From positions 521,015 through 585,014 of the forward strand of contig JBLYPX010000001.1 of the NCBI GenBank assembly GCA_048538235.1: DNA of 64,000 nt. The letters run 5' to 3'. The DNA is from Candidatus Komeilibacteria bacterium. GTDB taxonomy: Bacteria > Patescibacteriota > Patescibacteriia > UBA1558. Shown one piece after another: positions 19,944 through 29,060 of the stretch (positions within the stretch are counted from its first letter, which is position 1; each line of letters starts with the position of its first letter). Under the pieces are notes generated by a model. That model was not told where the DNA came from and searched no databases. It saw only the letters and a program-made list of their open reading frames with translations. The position numbers and the translations under genes were made by a program.

Positions 19944-20396
19944 TTAAACACCTTCGTATACACTGATTGACTGTCCCTGCTTTAAGGTAACAATAGCCTT
20001 TTTAGTCTTTCTTGTTTTACCACTAATTCTTCCATAAGTAACTTTTTTACCACGACTACGTATAATATTAACCTTAATGACATTCACATTGTATAATTTT
20101 TCAATTGCCTTTCTAACTTCAATCTTATTGGCATTCATTGCTACTTCAAATATATATTTATTTTCTGATGCTAAATATGTAGCTTTTTCTGTAATAACAG
20201 GTCTTTGTATCCATTTGTAAGATAAACCAGATTGACCAGTTGCTTTAGCAGTTGCCACTTTCTTTCCAGGCTTAGCTGTTTTGCTTTCCTTTTCTTCTAA
20301 CTGAGCCAATGTTAAATCTTCCTTAGCAACTACAGGTTTTTTCTTATCTTCTTTAACAGCTTTATCGTCTGTGTTTTTCTTTCCAAATATACCCAT
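19944..20396 (-). CDS. rplW: 50S ribosomal protein L23 with an N-terminal Lys-rich extension
   Basis: C-terminal 95 aa match L23 (YEVIKRPVITEKA-like QRPVITEKATYL...). About 55 aa N-terminal extension. Confidence 0.8.
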   Translation of the reverse strand: MGIFGKKNTDDKAVKEDKKKPVVAKEDLTLAQLEEKESKTAKPGKKVATAKATGQSGLSYKWIQRPVITEKATYLASENKYIFEVAMNANKIEVRKAIEKLYNVNVIKVNIIRSRGKKVTYGRISGKTRKTKKAIVTLKQGQSISVYEGV

Positions 20397-21029: not shown

Positions 21030-21818
21030 TTATTTATCTTCTTTTACTTCTTCTTTAGGAGCCTCTTCCTTAACTTCCTCTTTTGGCTCTTCTTTAACTT
21101 CTTCTACTTTTTCCTCAACCTTTTCTTCTTTTACCTCTTCTACTGGAGTTTCCTCTGCAGCTTTTTCTTCAACTGGAGTTTCTTCCTTAATCTCTTCTTT
21201 AACAGGTAACTTAAATTCTGAACCTGTCACAATGTATAAAATACCATTTCTTGCTCCAGGCACAGAGCCTTTTACATATATAATATTCTCATCTGCGTCT
21301 ATCTTAACTATTTCTAACCATTTAGATGTAATTTGTGCAGCTCCCATATGACCGCCCATTCTAGTTCCTTTAAAAACGTGAGCTGGACCAGTAGCACCAA
21401 TTGAACCAGGCATTCTTAATTGATCTTTATGACCATGACTTGCAGGAGATCCACGAAAACCCCATCTCTTAACAACACCCTGAAAGCCCTTACCTTTTGA
21501 AGTACCAATCACTTTTGCCTTTTCACCTTCTTCAAATATATCTACACCCCAGGTATCTCCCACTTTAACAGCGTCAACTGCAATATTGAATTCCTTAGAT
21601 GTTCTATATTTCTTTCCTTTAAAATGTCCAAGTAATGGTTTTGTTACCTTTCTCTTTTCACCAGAAGCAACTTGTACAGCCTCATAACCATCTTTTTCTT
21701 TAGTCTTAATTTGAGTAACTGTAACAGGTTCTGCCTTAATTTTTGTAACAGGCAAAACAACACCATCTGGTGTAAATATCTGTGTCATTTCTATTTTTTT
21801 GCCTATTATTGCTTTCAT
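21030..21818 (-). CDS. rplC: 50S ribosomal protein L3 with a roughly 55 aa repetitive Glu/Lys/Val-rich C-terminal tail
   Basis: L3 core (MKAIIGKKIEMTQIF..., GKGFQGVVKRWGF) followed by EEIKEETPVEEKAAEETPVEEVKEEKVEEKVEEVKEEPKEEVKEEAPKEEVKEDK. Confidence 0.9.
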   Translation of the reverse strand: MKAIIGKKIEMTQIFTPDGVVLPVTKIKAEPVTVTQIKTKEKDGYEAVQVASGEKRKVTKPLLGHFKGKKYRTSKEFNIAVDAVKVGDTWGVDIFEEGEKAKVIGTSKGKGFQGVVKRWGFRGSPASHGHKDQLRMPGSIGATGPAHVFKGTRMGGHMGAAQITSKWLEIVKIDADENIIYVKGSVPGARNGILYIVTGSEFKLPVKEEIKEETPVEEKAAEETPVEEVKEEKVEEKVEEVKEEPKEEVKEEAPKEEVKEDK

Positions 21819-22429: not shown

Positions 22430-23620
22430 TTACTTAATAATTTTAGTAACAATACCAGCTCCAACTGTATGACCACCTTCACGAATAGCAAACTTTTGCT
22501 TTTCTGACATGGCAACAGGGGTGATAAGTTTAATCTTAACTGTAACAGTATCTCCAGGCATAACCATTTCTGTACCAGCTGGAAGTTCATATACATCACC
22601 AGTTACATCAGTTGTTCTGATATAGAACTGTGGCTTATATCCTTTAAAGAATGGAGTGTGTCTACCACCTTCATCTTTGGATAGAATATATATTTCAGCT
22701 TCCATTTCAGTATGTGGAGTAATTGTTCCTGGTTTAGCAAGCACCTGACCTCTTTCAACGTCAGTCTTCTTTAGACCACGGATCAAAATACCGGCATTAT
22801 CTCCAGCACGACCCTCATCTAAACTCTTGTTAAACATTTCAATACCAGTAACTGTAGTTTTTTGAGTGTCTCTAATTCCAACGATTTCTACTTCTTCGTT
22901 TACCTTAATAACACCACTTTCAATTCTACCAGTCACAACAGTACCACGACCTTCGATTGAGAAGATATCTTCAACAGGCATTAAGAAATCCTTATCTACA
23001 TCTCTCTTAGGTTCTGGAATATATTCATCTAATTTTTCAATTAGAGAAACAACAGCCTTAGCATCTTCACCAGTTGGATCTTCTAAAGCTTTTAGAGCTG
23101 AACCACGAATAATTGGTGTTTCGTCTCCAGGGAATTCATATTTCTTTAACAAATCTCTGATTTCTTCTTCAACTAGATCAATTAATTCTGGATCATCTAC
23201 TTGATCTGTCTTGTTTAAGAAAACAACAATATATGGTACGCCCACCTGTCTAGCTAGCAAGATATGCTCTCTAGTTTGTGGCATAGGGCCATCAGCTGCA
23301 GAAACAACTAAAATAGCACCGTCCATCTGGGCTGCACCAGTAATCATATTTTTAATATAGTCAGCGTGACCAGGACAGTCGATATGAGCATAGTGACGTT
23401 TGTCACTTTCATATTCAACGTGAGCGGTCGCAATTGTAATACCACGCTCTTTTTCTTCAGGAGCGGCATCAATTTGACTAACGTCTTTTGTCTGTGCTGT
23501 TTTACCAGCTGCAGTTAAACTACTTAGAATAGCTGCTGTTAATGTTGTTTTACCATGATCAACGTGACCAATAGTACCCACATTAACGTGTGGCTTTGAT
23601 CTATCAAATGCTTCAGCCAT
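22430..23620 (-). CDS. tuf: elongation factor Tu
   Basis: 396 aa with [15 protein letters not shown] and NKxD motifs. Confidence 0.95.
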
Positions 23621-23721
23621 GATTATTATTCTCCATTCGCGCAGATATTACCCAACCCGCGCTTACTTAGTAATTAAATGTATTTATTTTTTGTAAAAAA
23701 AAATTGCTATATTGCGTAAGG

Positions 23722-23749: not shown

Positions 23750-23891
23750 GACCTAATAATAGTAATTTTAAAAACTGCCTAATTTTGTATATTTTTTAGC
23801 TAATATTAGCTAAATTATCTCCTTTATTTCCTAAATCTATAAAATAATTGTCTATTTTATATATCTACTTGTGGAAAACTATCCCTTTTAC

Positions 23892-24278
23892 CTATTCATC
23901 TATTTCTTCAAAGAAGAATTCATCTCCTTCGTCTGGCTCTTGAATATTGCTAATAGGTGGCGCAAAAGAAGCCTCTGCCCTATCTGCAATAACGTCTTTA
24001 ACTGATATTGGGCCATTTGGCACACTATTATGCTTAATTGGCTCCATTATTGGTGCTTCAGAGCTAATTATATCATTTAGTGCTTGTTTCTCATCTTCTA
24101 TATCCATTGTCTTTTCCTTTAATTCATCTTTTGCAATAAATTGAGACTTTGCCTGATTATCTCTAACCAAATCCTCATACGAGTCTAAATCCATTACTAC
24201 TAATAGATCTGTGTCGGTTGCAACAATTATTTTGTCTTTTGTTTTTTTAATTAAATTTCCTAATCTATTTATATCCAT
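23892..24278 (-). CDS. hypothetical acidic protein with a Phd/YefM-antitoxin-like N-terminal segment
   Basis: 128 aa. Residues about 5-40 (NRLGNLIKKTKDKIIVATDTDLLVVMDLDSYEDLVRD) resemble the Phd/YefM fold motif R.GNL.....I....AVLVS.E.YE.L. Long acidic C-terminus (EPDEGDEFFFEEIDE). No cognate toxin nearby. Confidence 0.4.
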   Translation of the reverse strand: MDINRLGNLIKKTKDKIIVATDTDLLVVMDLDSYEDLVRDNQAKSQFIAKDELKEKTMDIEDEKQALNDIISSEAPIMEPIKHNSVPNGPISVKDVIADRAEASFAPPISNIQEPDEGDEFFFEEIDE

Positions 24279-24279
24279 A

Positions 24280-25548
24280 TTATTTATAATAAATATTTAT
24301 ATACTCATAGTTATTCATATCTACAAGCTCTGTCTCAGACGCTTTATTAAAATCTATAAACACTGGCGGTCTACCATCCACACCAATAATTGCACTATTA
24401 TCTGTTACAGCATAGAGCTTATTTACCAAACTAATATCTGACCAAACATATATTGGAATTATCTTATCTGCCACAGTGCTATACATTACCAGTTTTTGAT
24501 TAGTTGGAATATATAGATAATTATCTAGCCAATACAAATTATTTAAACTTGGCGCACTAATAGCAGAAAGATCATCTATGTATATTGATTTAATTTTATG
24601 CAGACTAATATTATATAGAACAACTTCATTATTATCTCCATTCATTTCATCCTCCCAACTCATCTTAGGCAATATGAAAGCTATATATTCACCACTTGGA
24701 GACAAATATGGATAACCAGCTGTTTTAATCTTATTTTCCTCATCTACTTGTGAAAAATAGTTATCTAATGCCAATTGGAAACTATCTTTATCTATAACTC
24801 CCTCTGCAATATTTAAGAACTGAACCCTGCCAAGCACAGAAGCGCCTGCATCTGCATTAAACTGGTATAGAATAAGATTTTCTTGAGAATTATCATACCC
24901 AAGTATTTTTAGGCCTGAATAAATACCACCACTGACATCTGCTACTAAAGTATGTATATCTTTAACAGTATCATATTCCCATATCTCTACAGATTTAGAA
25001 CCACCTTCTAAGAGCTCCAAACTCTCATCTGAATACAAATTTGTTGAATAAGCAATTTTACTCTTATCTAATGAATAAACAGCTCCAGTAATAAACTTCC
25101 TCTGATTATTTACTTCTTTATTTGGTAAGCTAAAAATTTCTGCCACATCTCCAGTTTCTAAATATAATTCATAAAGCTCTGTACCACCCGCATCTTTATC
25201 CTGCCAAAAATCTTTAATTAAAAATACAGCATCTTGCTGTATATTTGTAGATAGTAAAGAATATTTACCTTCTACTACTTCTGAAATTGTCTGAATATCT
25301 TTGTTTAATTCCTGACTAGCCAATTTATACCCACCAGCAGATAAATCCAAACCCACAAAAGAAACATTGCCAATCTCTGGTTTATTCTCATTAACCACCT
25401 CTTCAGTAGTTATTATGTCTACAGTTTGTATTTCTTCGCCATCTTTTAAACTAATAGAAACAACAACACCTATAAGTACTATTATTACTATACCTATAAC
25501 AACACTCATTATTTGAGAAAAACCTTTGTCGTTTACCATAAATATTAT
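24280..25548 (-). CDS. hypothetical membrane-anchored protein (single N-terminal TM, large extracytoplasmic domain)
   Basis: Track ORF 24280-25599. A minus-strand promoter-like TTGACA(25599-25594)-TAAAAT overlaps the first codons, so the start is probably ATG 25548 (MVNDKGFSQIMSVVIGIVIIVLIGVVV...). No recognised domain. Confidence 0.45.
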   Translation of the reverse strand: MIFMVNDKGFSQIMSVVIGIVIIVLIGVVVSISLKDGEEIQTVDIITTEEVVNENKPEIGNVSFVGLDLSAGGYKLASQELNKDIQTISEVVEGKYSLLSTNIQQDAVFLIKDFWQDKDAGGTELYELYLETGDVAEIFSLPNKEVNNQRKFITGAVYSLDKSKIAYSTNLYSDESLELLEGGSKSVEIWEYDTVKDIHTLVADVSGGIYSGLKILGYDNSQENLILYQFNADAGASVLGRVQFLNIAEGVIDKDSFQLALDNYFSQVDEENKIKTAGYPYLSPSGEYIAFILPKMSWEDEMNGDNNEVVLYNISLHKIKSIYIDDLSAISAPSLNNLYWLDNYLYIPTNQKLVMYSTVADKIIPIYVWSDISLVNKLYAVTDNSAIIGVDGRPPVFIDFNKASETELVDMNNYEYINIYYK

Positions 25549-25656
25549 AATTATTAAGAATGTATAGGGAATTTTATACTGTATATATATATTTGTCAAA
25601 GTTGTTTATTGACATCATCTATTGACAATATTTTAGACGAATGTTATTGTGTTCTG

Positions 25657-25946
25657 GCTATAATGTACATTAAATTTTGTCTAGTCAGAGTAGTTGCTTT
25701 TGACATTGCCTATTTCACCAAAAAAAACCATTTCCCATGGTTTCAGCTGCAAATCCGAAACTAGGTGACTATCAGGAACAACATGACACTGGCTAGACAT
25801 ATTTCCAAGGGCTCTGAGATTCCCTCCCCTTACGAACGATCGTATACGAATCTTATTTGCCCTTTTTAACCGAGAGCTATTTCCTACTCTACAGCTCTCC
25901 TTACCGCAGAGCGCTAGGTCAATGACTTGGCGCTCTTTCTTTTAAC
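25657..25946 (+). ncRNA. candidate structured small RNA (unclassified), GC-enriched and ORF-free, between a plus-strand promoter-like element and a strong bidirectional terminator
   Basis: TTGACA(25622-25627)-17-TATTGT(25645-25650). Local GC clearly above flanks. Multiple helices (gagagct...agctctc, agagcgc...gcgctct). No ORF of 60 aa or more. Strand assignment is uncertain. Confidence 0.3.
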
Positions 25947-25978
25947 AAAAAACCCGTGAAATATTTCACGGGTTTTTA
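25947..25978. terminator. strong bidirectional terminator after fusA (aacccgtgaa-atat-ttcacgggtt)
   Basis: Perfect 10-12 bp stem with A-tract and T-tract flanks, 20 nt downstream of the fusA stop. Confidence 0.7.
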
Positions 25979-25996
25979 TATATAATCTATATCTAA

Positions 25997-28093
25997 TTAA
26001 TTCTTGCCTTCTTTAATCTTTTCTTCAACATTCTTTGGCACTTCGGCATAATGTGAGAATTCCATACTATATGATGCTCTACCCTTGGATAGAGAACGGA
26101 TAGCAGTAGAATAACCAAACATTTCTCCTAGAGGCACATCAGCGTCTACAATCTTCATTTGACCTCTATCTCCCATTTCTTTAATCTGAGCACGTTTAGA
26201 GTTAAGATCTCCAATAACATCACCCATAGATTCTTCAGGAGTTACAACTTCTACTTTCATAATAGGTTCCAAAAGGACAAGTCCTGCCTTAGCACAAGCT
26301 GCTTTAAAGGCCATAGCTCCGGCAACTTTAAAGGCTGCTTCAGAAGAGTCAACTTCATGATATGATCCGTCATAGACATTAACACTAACATCAATTAATG
26401 GATAGCCAGCCAATATTCCATTCTCCATAGTTTCTTTAACACCTTTTTCAATTGGAGCAATGTACTCTTTTGGAATTGCACCACCTTTAATAGTGCTCTC
26501 AAATTCAAAACCAGCACCACGTTCACGACTTTCAACTTTTAACCAACAGTGACCAAATTGACCACGACCACCAGATTGCTTAACATACTTACCTTCTGCT
26601 TCAGCACTACCTTTAATAGTTTCTTTGTATGCAACTTGTGGAGCACCAACATTAGCTTCAACTTGAAATTCTCTTTTCATTCTATCTACAATAATATCTA
26701 AATGAAGCTCTCCCATACCTTTAATAATTGTTTGAAGGGTTTCTTCGTCTGTAGATACTTGGAAAGTAGGATCTTCCTCGGCTAATTTAGAAAGAGCAAG
26801 GCCCATCTTTTCCTGATCTTGTTTTGTCTTAGGTTCAATAGCTACTGAAATAACAGGTTCTGGGAAAGTAATTGACTCAAGTACAATTGGATTTGCTTCA
26901 TCACATAAAGTGTCTCCAGTACCAGTATCTTTTAATCCAACAACAGCTGCAATTTCACCAGCGTAAATCTCATCCACCTCTTCACGTGAATTAGCATGCA
27001 TTCTAACGATACGACCAATTCTTTCTTTACTTTCTTTTGACGAATTATATACGTATGATCCAGCTTTTAATACGCCAGAATATACACGTACAAAACATAA
27101 TTTACCAACATATGGATCAGTTGCAATCTTAAAAGCAAGTAATGATAAAGGTTCTGCATCATCTGCTTTACGTACCATTGTTTTTTCCTCATCATCTAAC
27201 GCATGACCTTCAACAGCTGGAACATCTAGTGGAGATGGCAATAATTCTACAATAGCGTCTAATAAAAATTGAACACCTTTATTCTTTAAAGCTGTACCAA
27301 CATATATTGGAATAATTTGATTAGCAATAACACCTTTGCGCAAAGCTTTCTTTAACTCTTCTAATGAAGGTTCTTCACCACCAAGGTATTGTTCCATTAA
27401 TTTTTCATCTGTCTCTACAATAGCTTCAATTAATTTACTTCTATACTCTTCTACTTTATCTTTCATATCTTCTGGAACATCGCCTTCGGTTATATCTTTA
27501 CCAAAGTCATCATTATATATATATGATTTACGTGTCAAAAGATCAACAAGTCCTTGGAAAGTTTCAGCTGCACCAATTGGTAATTGTGCAGGATAAGCTT
27601 TATTAGTTAATCTATCTTCAATAGTTTGAATATCGTAATAGAAATCTGCTCCCATTCTATCCATTTTATTAATAAAACAGATTCTAGGAACTTCATATTT
27701 ATCTGCTTGATGCCAAACTGTTTCAGATTGAGGTTCTACACCAGCTACACCGTCAAAAATAACAACACCACCATCTAGAACACGTAAAGAACGTTCTACT
27801 TCGGCTGTAAAGTCAACGTGACCTGGGGTATCAATAATGTTAATACGGTGCATATCTTCTGGCTTATTGCGAGAAGCCCAAAAACAAGTTGTAGCAGCAG
27901 AGGTAATAGTAATACCACGCTCTTGTTCTTGTTCCATCCAGTCCATTTCAGCTTCACCTTCATGAACTTCACCTATTTTATGTTTCTTACCAGTATAGAA
28001 CAGTACTCTTTCTGTAACTGTTGTTTTACCAGCATCAATATGGGCAATAATCCCAATATTACGTACCTTATCTAAAGGATAATCTCTTGACAT
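25997..28093 (-). CDS. fusA: elongation factor G
   Basis: 698 aa with [17 protein letters not shown] and NKMD motifs. Confidence 0.95.
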
Positions 28094-28117: not shown

Positions 28118-28585
28118 TTATCTTGCGAAATGAGCAAAAGCTTTGTTTGCCTCTGCCATTTTATGGACATCCTGCTTCTTCTTCATTGCTTCACCTTCAC
28201 CATTAGCAGCATCCATTAATTCTTCAGCTAATTTCAAATGCATTGGTTTACCCTTTTTACCTTTAGATGCACCAATAATCCATCTGAAAGCAAGTTGTGT
28301 TTTACGTGAACCAGACACTACTACTGGCACCTGATAATTAGCACCACCAATACGTCTACCCTTAACTTCAATATTTGGTCCAACATTTTTAATAGCTGCA
28401 TCAAAAACATCTAGTGGATCTTGCTTTGTTTTCTTAGAAATGAAATCAAAGGCTCCATAAACTATTTTTTGAGCTACACTTTTCTTACCATCATCCATAA
28501 TGTAATTAATAAATTTAGCAATCGTTACATTGTTGAACTTTGGATCTGGTTTAATTTTTCTCTTTGGGGCTTGTTTACCTCTCAT
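28118..28585 (-). CDS. rpsG: 30S ribosomal protein S7
   Basis: 155 aa, typical S7. Confidence 0.9.
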   Translation of the reverse strand: MRGKQAPKRKIKPDPKFNNVTIAKFINYIMDDGKKSVAQKIVYGAFDFISKKTKQDPLDVFDAAIKNVGPNIEVKGRRIGGANYQVPVVVSGSRKTQLAFRWIIGASKGKKGKPMHLKLAEELMDAANGEGEAMKKKQDVHKMAEANKAFAHFAR

Positions 28586-28607: not shown

Positions 28608-29060
28608 TTATTCAGCACTAGCTTCTGTAGAAGCCTTAGCTCCTTTTTTATCTAAACGCGCTCCATATAATGAACGACTTTGTTTTCGACCTTCTACTCC
28701 TTGGGTGTCATAGACACCACGAACCACATGATAACGAACACCAGCAAGATCTCTAACACGACCACCACGAAGTAGTACAATAGAGTGTTCTTGTAAATTG
28801 TGTCCTTCACCAGGAATATATGCTGTTACTTCCATACCATTAGATAGTCTAACTCTAGCAATCTTACGTAAAGCTGAGTTAGGTTTCTTTGGGGTAGTTG
28901 TAGTAACTTTAACACATACGCCACGTTTAAAAGGAGCGCCTTCTGGATGGTTATCTCTTTTTCTCTTTAAAGCATTAAGAGTATAACGCAAGCCAGGAGC
29001 TTTCGCTTTCTTTTTCTTAGACTTTCTTGGATTTTTTAACAATTGATTTGTTGTAGGCAT
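28608..29060 (-). CDS. rpsL: 30S ribosomal protein S12 with a short C-terminal extension
   Basis: [13 protein letters not shown]...[10 protein letters not shown] core. Extra C-terminal [17 protein letters not shown]. Confidence 0.9.

Follow-up and report, generated by a model that had tools for sequence, protein, structure and literature searches.

What lies between fusA and tuf, the genes of the elongation factors EF-G and EF-Tu whose linkage is one of the most conserved in bacteria, is the question raised by a 64,000-nucleotide stretch (hereafter the window, to which the reading of this genome was limited) of an 860 kb contig from Candidatus Komeilibacteria, placed by NCBI in the Parcubacteria group of the Patescibacteria group. 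In the canonical str operon tuf directly follows fusA and is co-transcribed with it; the window does not have this arrangement, since 2376 bp holding a terminator, two promoters and two genes separate them. These two genes, here called X and Y, are recorded at NCBI as the "hypothetical proteins" ACKKL6_02970 and ACKKL6_02965, and the order on the minus strand is rpsL, rpsG, fusA, X, Y, tuf, rpsJ, rplC and onward. The best overall explanation, which we judge to have about an even chance of being right, is that Y is a domesticated, toxin-less protein of the Phd/YefM type tied to EF-Tu and that X is a secondary insertion. The genes concerned are the following.

25997-28093, minus strand: fusA, encoding EF-G of 698 aa (open reading frame, ORF; EF-G domains of Pfam in orthologues), bounding the feature upstream.
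24280-25539, minus strand: gene X, 419 aa (ORF, starts of homologues, AlphaFold).
23892-24278, minus strand: gene Y, 128 aa, acidic (ORF, homologues, profile comparison).
22430-23620, minus strand: tuf, encoding EF-Tu of 396 aa (ORF), the invariant downstream neighbour of Y.

Both X and Y are genuine genes: at least 10 distinct lineages carry homologues in unchanged order, with identities that fall to 20-27% for X and 22-40% for Y. The two genes that an earlier note on this DNA had placed between fusA and tuf are thus real and not a strain-specific insertion. Protein searches returned just 8-9 clusters for each of X and Y, and every sufficiently long contig obtained from them carries fusA-X-Y-tuf, so that the synteny which the earlier note had proposed to check is conserved in this subclade, as listed below.

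L001, L002 and L017: fusA-X-Y-tuf, X 69% identical to that of the window.
L003: fusA-X-Y-tuf, X 53% identical.
L004-L007: fusA-X-Y-tuf, X 38% identical.
L008 and L009: fusA-X-Y-tuf, X 41% identical, with an opposite-strand NUDIX gene between fusA and X.
L010: fusA-X-Y-tuf, X 37% identical.
L014 and L018: fusA-X-Y-tuf, X 27% identical.
L019: fusA-X-Y-tuf, partial X.

The distribution of Y is much wider. A profile of the Y proteins of the window clade, run exhaustively against 1.84 billion cluster representatives, matched 16 proteins at E<=0.001. P0024 probably owes its match to a repeat and is likely spurious; the remaining matches share the N-terminal domain of Y and in most cases also its C-terminal aromatic-acidic motif. 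The extended profile reached 32 clusters, a profile scan of genome contigs gave 2 loci, and a metagenome scan with a remote Y subfamily gave 206 confirmed loci, of which 80 were kept; these 80 were chosen by similarity to Y and therefore hold no information on lineages that lack it. The order fusA-Y-tuf without X is found in L013 (another Komeilibacteria), in L015 (a Kuenenbacteria contig) and in L016 and L020 (Patescibacteria), and no X-like gene was present in the 80 remote metagenome loci. Of the kept loci, 71 have 500 nt or more of sequence beyond Y; in 68 of these EF-Tu begins shortly downstream, the other three extending for no more than 590-650 nt, and tuf is also downstream of Y in every locus fetched by protein identity. 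The other side is less constant: the end of EF-G is upstream of Y in 58 of the 71 loci, within 130 nt or less in about 34 and at 145-3473 nt in about 24, and in 13 no EF-G was found in the flank.

Judged from this distribution, Y and tuf form an invariant pair, and Y is older and far more widespread than X, which appears as the cargo of one lineage confined to a single Komeilibacteria-related subclade. The proposal that X and Y were inserted together as one lineage-specific module does not survive this comparison, given that Y occurs without X in L013, L015, L016, L020 and the 80 metagenome loci. In an unrooted EF-Tu tree the X-less L013, L015 and L016 group together, apart from the X-bearing loci, and for this reason a single gain of X would be the most parsimonious history. 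Where X is absent, Y is placed for co-expression with fusA, with a gap of 2 nt in L020 and a strong Shine-Dalgarno sequence 22 nt after fusA in L015. In the window clade, Y would be expressed from the promoter of X and translationally coupled to it: a single nucleotide lies between the X stop and the Y start of the window, and this gap is kept in eight loci (the window, L001, L003, L004, L008, L014, L017 and L019).

The genes that occupy the space between fusA and Y are mutually unrelated; among them are a NagB-like enzyme and small proteins that are secreted or in the membrane. Since different lineages carry different, unrelated cargo there, the fusA-Y junction points to a recurrent insertion hot spot in the str operon. 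Among the individual cases are the opposite-strand NUDIX hydrolase gene at 2215-2742 of L008 and 331-858 of L009, and the cargo of L029, L033, L034, L039, L072, L094 and L098; the NagB-like enzyme has about 490-525 aa. A phage origin of X and Y was rejected, as no relatives of either were found on viral contigs.

The Y protein of the window has 128 aa, a pI of 4.2 and a net charge of about -17, and its end, DEFFFEEIDE, is the sole such C-terminus in the window, in agreement with its first description as a highly acidic protein with a tail rich in Asp, Glu and Phe. It consists of an N-terminal domain (about residues 1-45), a disordered linker, a motif GPISVKDVIA and the C-terminal DEFFFEEIDE, and GPISVKDVIA and DEFFFEE[IV]DE are conserved in the window clade. 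An AlphaFold model of low confidence (predicted local distance difference test, pLDDT, 58) has a helix at residues 3-12, strands at 16-20 and 26-30, a helix at 31-55 and little regular structure beyond. In the family as a whole, the N-terminal domain is characterized by the motifs KKT[GK]D[RK]xI[VI] and hhhMDhx[DE/S]YE. Most lineages also have a highly conserved helix, LTE[DE]ELLDKINRDIAxWK, whose counterparts in alignments are the toxin-binding helices of YefM. Next come a linker that is acidic and variable and the C-terminal [FY][FY]FE[EP][VI][DE], which reads FFFEE[VI]DE in the window clade and YYFEP[VI]E in most relatives; one subfamily ends in KxWxIPxxVKxKAxEIE. Conserved motifs therefore stand at both ends of a variable linker. 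Residues ~24-40 of Y (window LLVVMDLDSYEDL), with the pattern hhhMDh-x-[ST]-YE-x-h, resemble FMDxETYEQ of the OB domain of EF-P/IF-5A, which is curious given the position of Y between two elongation-factor genes and is probably due to chance; the hits are weak (E 0.02-0.18), stem from the short motif hhhMDh.sYE and span no more than ~25 residues.

Neither X nor Y gave anything significant in Pfam, NCBIfam, PADLOC, PHROGs or PDB sequence searches, and the affiliation of Y comes from profile comparison through intermediate members. The window-clade profile aligns with that of the broad Y family at an hhalign probability of 97.8% (E 1.2e-12), and PhdYeFM_antitox (PF02604) ranks first among Pfam families for 9 of 10 metagenome members and 5 of 10 other remote members of the latter. 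The best score belongs to L099, whose Y lies between EF-G and EF-Tu as in the other members, and reaches 33.6 bits against a curated cutoff of 29.8 (E 3.4e-8); the matches are colinear, with protein residues ~4-43 on profile positions ~12-50. The top PDB sequence match of the N-terminal domain profile is E. coli YefM, at a non-significant E of 0.6, and the broad family compared with four Phd/YefM sequences, of which the YefM segment was confirmed by the PDB search, gave 72% in hhalign (P 3.5e-5). By transitive homology, Y is thus assigned to the Phd/YefM superfamily, and the N-terminal resemblance that the earlier note had picked out proves sound. The absence of a partner toxin holds as well: in more than 90 loci examined, no toxin gene adjoins Y (the upstream gene is EF-G, X or one of assorted unrelated genes), and the 64-kb window contains no Fic/Doc motif. 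Because no toxin adjoins it, Y does not fall under the definition of a type II toxin-antitoxin system. In these evolutionary and structural statements on X and Y we have high confidence.

The properties of the known family indicate what Y may have kept. Phd has a dimerising, DNA-binding N-terminal domain and a disordered C-terminus that folds on Doc (PMC4803016); Doc, in turn, phosphorylates and inactivates EF-Tu (PMC4803016). The antitoxins of this family are dimers whose partner feeds back on operator binding, a behaviour named conditional cooperativity. Y is a toxin-less descendant of this superfamily that has become fixed next to the 5' end of tuf in a wide range of Patescibacteria. It would keep the antitoxin layout as a small N-terminal dimerisation domain, predicted as alpha-beta-beta-alpha, and a long disordered tail. 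In the dimer, the acidic tail with its conserved short motifs would fold onto a protein partner on the EF-Tu axis, namely EF-Tu itself, another translation factor or the ribosome. This link of Y to EF-Tu is held tentatively, at somewhat less than an even chance. In an alternative branch of the same explanation, Y would tune tuf through the neighbouring promoter or leader, and EF-Tu might serve as its co-factor in the style of conditional cooperativity; the adjoining, dedicated tuf promoter and the presence of clade-conserved palindromes are in favour of it. A more specific form, in which Y has swapped its toxin for a housekeeping partner, binds EF-Tu (or EF-G) through its tail and perhaps also the tuf promoter or leader RNA, and acts as a feedback regulator or chaperone of EF-Tu, is rather doubtful. 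X, for its part, would be a later insertion at the recurrent fusA-Y site that arrived with its own sigma70-type promoter.

Several observations weigh against this explanation. The Y of the window has no Pfam match even at E<=10 and stays below the curated threshold of PF02604, and a Foldseek search of its weak model against PDB gave no match better than E=2. The Pfam matches start at profile positions 10-15, so that Y seems to have no counterpart of the first beta-strand of Phd/YefM, and the modelled alpha-beta-beta-alpha order of Y compares with beta-alpha-beta-beta-alpha in Phd/YefM. The helix LTEDELLDKINRDIAxWK, so well conserved elsewhere, is degenerate in the window clade. The loop between beta2 and beta3 is acidic in Y and basic in YefM and Phd, and the arginine positions that we take to be those of DNA binding in YefM are not conserved, both of which weaken the DNA-binding branch; with a protein that is itself strongly acidic, the label of "DNA-binding fold" initially given to Y is not established. 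No operator-like motif is common to distant lineages, the 53 Y-tuf spacers compared sharing no operator word and being enriched just in promoter and leader-RNA words. Moreover, gene neighbourhood in ribosomal operons can mirror selection on expression level in place of a shared function.

X has features of its own that bear on its relationship with Y. The start of the gene is the ATG at 25539, giving 419 aa, because every homologue opens with M-x-N-D-[KRS]-G-F-S in agreement with this position; the 439-aa version described at first, from the TTG at 25599, is too long, and this TTG is part of the conserved -35 hexamer of the X promoter, which is the following.

25599-25571, minus strand: X promoter TTGACA-17-TAAAAT, matching at 11 of 12 positions and conserved in 5 loci.

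Transcription from it is predicted to start at ~25564. The single N-terminal transmembrane anchor and the large outer domain of that first description stand as predictions. X is composed of a conserved 10-residue N-terminal stub, a transmembrane helix, an acidic disordered linker and a propeller: in the AlphaFold model (predicted template modelling score, pTM, 0.68) residues 5-29 form a helix and residues 30-90 an acidic linker of low confidence, and an all-beta domain follows, which is modelled as a closed, roughly 7-bladed beta-propeller with 4-stranded blades. From the distribution of charges around the helix, the N-terminus would be inside and the C-terminus outside, with the propeller facing outward. 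The stub MxND[KRS]GFS is the best-conserved segment, with a majority fraction of 0.79 against 0.63 for the propeller, and the C-terminus carries a motif EYINIY.

X has no catalytic domain, ends ~15 residues past the propeller and has no peptidase match in Pfam or NCBIfam, and its assignment as an S9 prolyl-oligopeptidase was discarded, as the C-terminal alpha/beta-hydrolase domain is missing. In comparison with known beta-propellers (those of S9 peptidases, oligogalacturonate lyase-like proteins and prokaryotic WD40 proteins), X differs in having neither a catalytic domain nor a Pfam repeat match, its identity to any solved structure is at most 14%, and the N-terminal stub and the EYINIY motif are its own. 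A type IV pilin or pseudopilin was likewise considered, in view of the site-like KG|FSQIM, but X is not classed as a pilin because Glu+5 is absent in every homologue: G-F-S is conserved, whereas position +5 is M, I or V and position +3 is Q, R or K in all of them. No prepilin-type motif was found in other ORFs of the window.

Upstream of X, the fusA-X spacer contains two further features.

25947-25977, minus strand: intrinsic terminator 3' of fusA, CCCGTGA-loop-TCACGGG followed by a T run (sequence, fold, conservation).
25650-25940, plus strand: variable, G+C-richer spacer with a candidate small divergent transcript (promoter-like site and terminator-like hairpin).

The terminator is conserved in L001, L003 and L004 and is the strongest hairpin of the computed fold of the spacer; it would uncouple X-Y from fusA. 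The spacer RNA has a fold z-score of -3.4 and a poorly conserved middle, and neither an Rfam match nor a conserved ORF was found in it. A plus-strand promoter-like site at 25622-25650 and a plus-strand terminator-like hairpin at 25908-25936 may delimit a divergent small transcript of ~290 nt. The inverted repeat TTGTCAA (25593-25599) / TTGACAA (25622-25628) corresponds to back-to-back, conserved -35 hexamers, one arm lying in the -35 of the X promoter and the other in that of the plus-strand site. The possibility of a decayed NUDIX gene in this spacer, prompted by L008, was dropped after tblastn gave nothing significant.

Other explanations of the two genes have to be weighed against a domesticated Y tied to EF-Tu. 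X and Y may form a functional two-protein module, in which X is a membrane sensor or adhesin whose cytoplasmic stub holds Y or signals to it, in line with the pairing of a surface-anchored protein and a small acidic one considered in the earlier note. The exact 1-nt gap persists in eight lineages although X has diverged to 20-27% identity, the stub is the most conserved segment of X, and the two genes share a dedicated promoter behind the fusA terminator, all of which speak for such a module; yet Y is without X in most lineages, unrelated genes fill the same slot elsewhere, and the globular domain of X is predicted outside the cell and Y inside it. In addition, the clade-specific Y motifs PLSIRDIIA and YFFQEVED are already present in the X-less Komeilibacteria L013, and Y therefore appears unchanged by the arrival of X. 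We regard the module as unlikely. The same low probability is given to the view that both genes are hitch-hikers in a fusA-tuf spacer that tolerates insertions and offers strong expression, with Y unrelated to translation, for instance as a general acidic or disordered protein. That the junction accepts many unrelated genes and that neither protein has a functional annotation agree with it, but a mere passenger would hardly remain beside tuf in 68 of 71 loci, spanning candidate phyla, when the link to fusA has been lost time and again, and the motifs of Y are under strong purifying selection.

Two more explanations concern the biochemical role of Y. As a working antitoxin, Y would neutralise a toxin encoded elsewhere or provide anti-addiction immunity against toxins of the Doc/YoeB type that hit EF-Tu or translation, being co-expressed with their target; this fits the Phd/YefM homology, the fact that conservation within the broad family peaks in the helix aligned with the toxin-binding region of YefM, and the phosphorylation of EF-Tu by Doc (PMC4803016). 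It is nevertheless distinctly unlikely, in view of more than 90 loci with no adjoining toxin gene, a 64-kb window with no Fic motif, the lack of relatives on viral contigs, the loss of the conserved helix in the window clade and a strict vertical conservation at one site that is unlike the patchy occurrence of toxin-antitoxin and anti-addiction genes. Alternatively, Y could be an adaptor for the ribosome or the translational GTPases, a dimer that would offer acidic tails and a hydrophobic-acidic C-terminal peptide to EF-Tu or EF-G. The putative dimer domain, the long acidic linker and the conserved aromatic-acidic C-terminus would suit this role, as would the invariable site between two GTPase genes and the coupling to fusA expression where X is absent. 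The argument is, however, purely by analogy with stalk and SSB proteins; the subfamily ending in KxWxIPxxVKxKAxEIE has no aromatic-acidic tail, and nothing in the 64 kb read of the window genome indicates a loss of bL12 in these genomes. To this adaptor we give the lowest probability of all, and consider it very unlikely.

The comparison with known systems places the domesticated Y more precisely. With the Phd/YefM antitoxins (PF02604; E. coli YefM and Phd of phage P1) it shares the homologous ~45 N-terminal residues, recognised through intermediates, the small size and the layout, in which a compact N-terminal domain precedes a disordered C-terminal region that bears partner-binding motifs. 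In contrast to them, Y is fixed in the str operon by tuf and is neither mobile nor patchy, has no adjoining toxin, lacks the first beta-strand, has an acidic and not a basic beta2-beta3 loop, and ends in a far more acidic tail with a conserved aromatic-acidic C-terminus, the Y of the window remaining below every Pfam threshold. Orphan or solitary antitoxins, carried by chromosomes or phages, are also antitoxin-family genes without a cognate toxin; the known ones are sporadic and linked to plasmid or phage conflict, whereas Y has been inherited vertically at a single housekeeping locus in several candidate phyla. The tails of the archaeal and eukaryotic P-stalk bind translational GTPases and the C-terminal tip of SSB recruits partners, and these proteins, by functional analogy, combine as Y may do an oligomerisation domain, a flexible acidic linker and a short hydrophobic-acidic C-terminal peptide; Y has no sequence or fold relationship with them, and its binding to ribosome or GTPases is hypothetical. 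Finally, ylxR and ylxQ of the nusA-infB operon are accessory genes of initially unknown role within a translation operon, to which Y is comparable as a small conserved gene in a core translation operon, the differences being the family, the operon and the restriction of Y to Patescibacteria.

The spacer between Y and tuf, on which the regulatory branch depends, has 271 bp, contains no ORF of at least 50 aa in the window and includes four elements conserved in relatives; its features are listed here with the ribosome binding site of tuf.

23870-23878, minus strand: TTTTCCACA, a DnaA-box-like 9-mer within the block AGTTTTCCACA, ~10 nt past the Y stop.
23795-23814, no strand: perfect 20-bp palindrome TTTAGCTAATATTAGCTAAA, ~50 bp upstream of the tuf -35.
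23749-23722, minus strand: tuf promoter TTGCAA-16-TATAAT with a TG extension, conserved in relatives.
23639-23662, minus strand: tuf leader stem-loop GCGCGG / loop GUUGGGUAAUAU / CUGCGC, directly 5' of the Shine-Dalgarno sequence GGAG.
23631-23634, minus strand: tuf Shine-Dalgarno sequence GGAG.

The promoter of tuf is the one that had been read from the window at first, and its conservation supports that reading; the word GTTATAAT is enriched among the 53 Y-tuf spacers, and transcription of tuf is predicted to start at ~23715. The 9-mer TTTTCCACA, which fits the relaxed DnaA-box consensus perfectly, is kept in all seven aligned X-containing lineages and is absent from the X-less L013. A role as DnaA box was rejected, given that the window has 9 copies of the pattern versus 11 expected and thus no enrichment. 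The palindrome TTTAGCTAATATTAGCTAAA may serve as an operator or form a hairpin in RNA. It is conserved in relatives, the X-less L013 among them, with symmetric substitutions of A/T to G/C, and it is not a canonical terminator because the A run comes after it. Neither of the candidate palindromes, at 23795-23814 and at 25593-25599/25622-25628, is common to distant lineages.

The leader of the window is the reduced form, without the inner hairpin, of a wider tuf-leader motif of the Patescibacteria. In the full motif, an outer helix of 6 bp encloses the bulge UGG-N-UAAAA on its 5' side and one G/C-rich inner hairpin, occasionally two; the 3' arm ends 11-22 nt ahead of the tuf ATG. A perfect 6-bp outer helix around UGG is present in 25 of the 53 non-redundant spacers, against 3.9 on average and at most 8 in shuffled sequences, and the 25 spacers use 21 different arm pairs; the pairs were counted by our own script, RNAalifold having given the inner helix only, as MAFFT misaligned the 3' arm. 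The loci with the motif include L013, L015, L021, L024-L026, L057, L064-L067 and L072, and also L082, L083, L089, L092-L094, L100 and others, and compensatory changes in the leader stem are seen in L004, L013 and L014. Rfam contains no family for either spacer or for the tuf leader. This covarying RNA may be a cis-regulatory element for the synthesis of EF-Tu.

The rest of the operon in the window begins with two ribosomal protein genes upstream of fusA.

28608-29060, minus strand: rpsL (ORF).
28118-28585, minus strand: rpsG (ORF).

Beyond tuf, L3 (rplC, 21030-21818) carries a Glu/Lys/Pro-rich C-terminal extension of ~55 residues that includes EEIKEETPVEEKAAEETPVEEVKEEKVEE, its length among related loci ranging from 253 to 295 aa, and L23 (rplW, 19944-20396) carries a Lys-rich N-terminal extension of ~55 residues.

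The interest of Y lies mainly in its location and constancy. In the literature we found no description of any gene that separates fusA from tuf in these organisms, nor of a solitary Phd/YefM homologue tied to tuf, and the members of the Y family are "hypothetical proteins" in every named source record. A newly identified, previously unannotated family is thus recognised at the fusA-tuf junction of many Patescibacteria, deriving from a Phd/YefM fold without its toxin, and the insertion hot spot between fusA and Y and the undescribed structured leader of tuf are by-products of this analysis. If Y does act on EF-Tu, parts of a toxin-antitoxin system would have been recruited for the control of core translation, and the reduced translation apparatus of these ultra-small episymbionts would include, in Y, a factor specific to the lineage.

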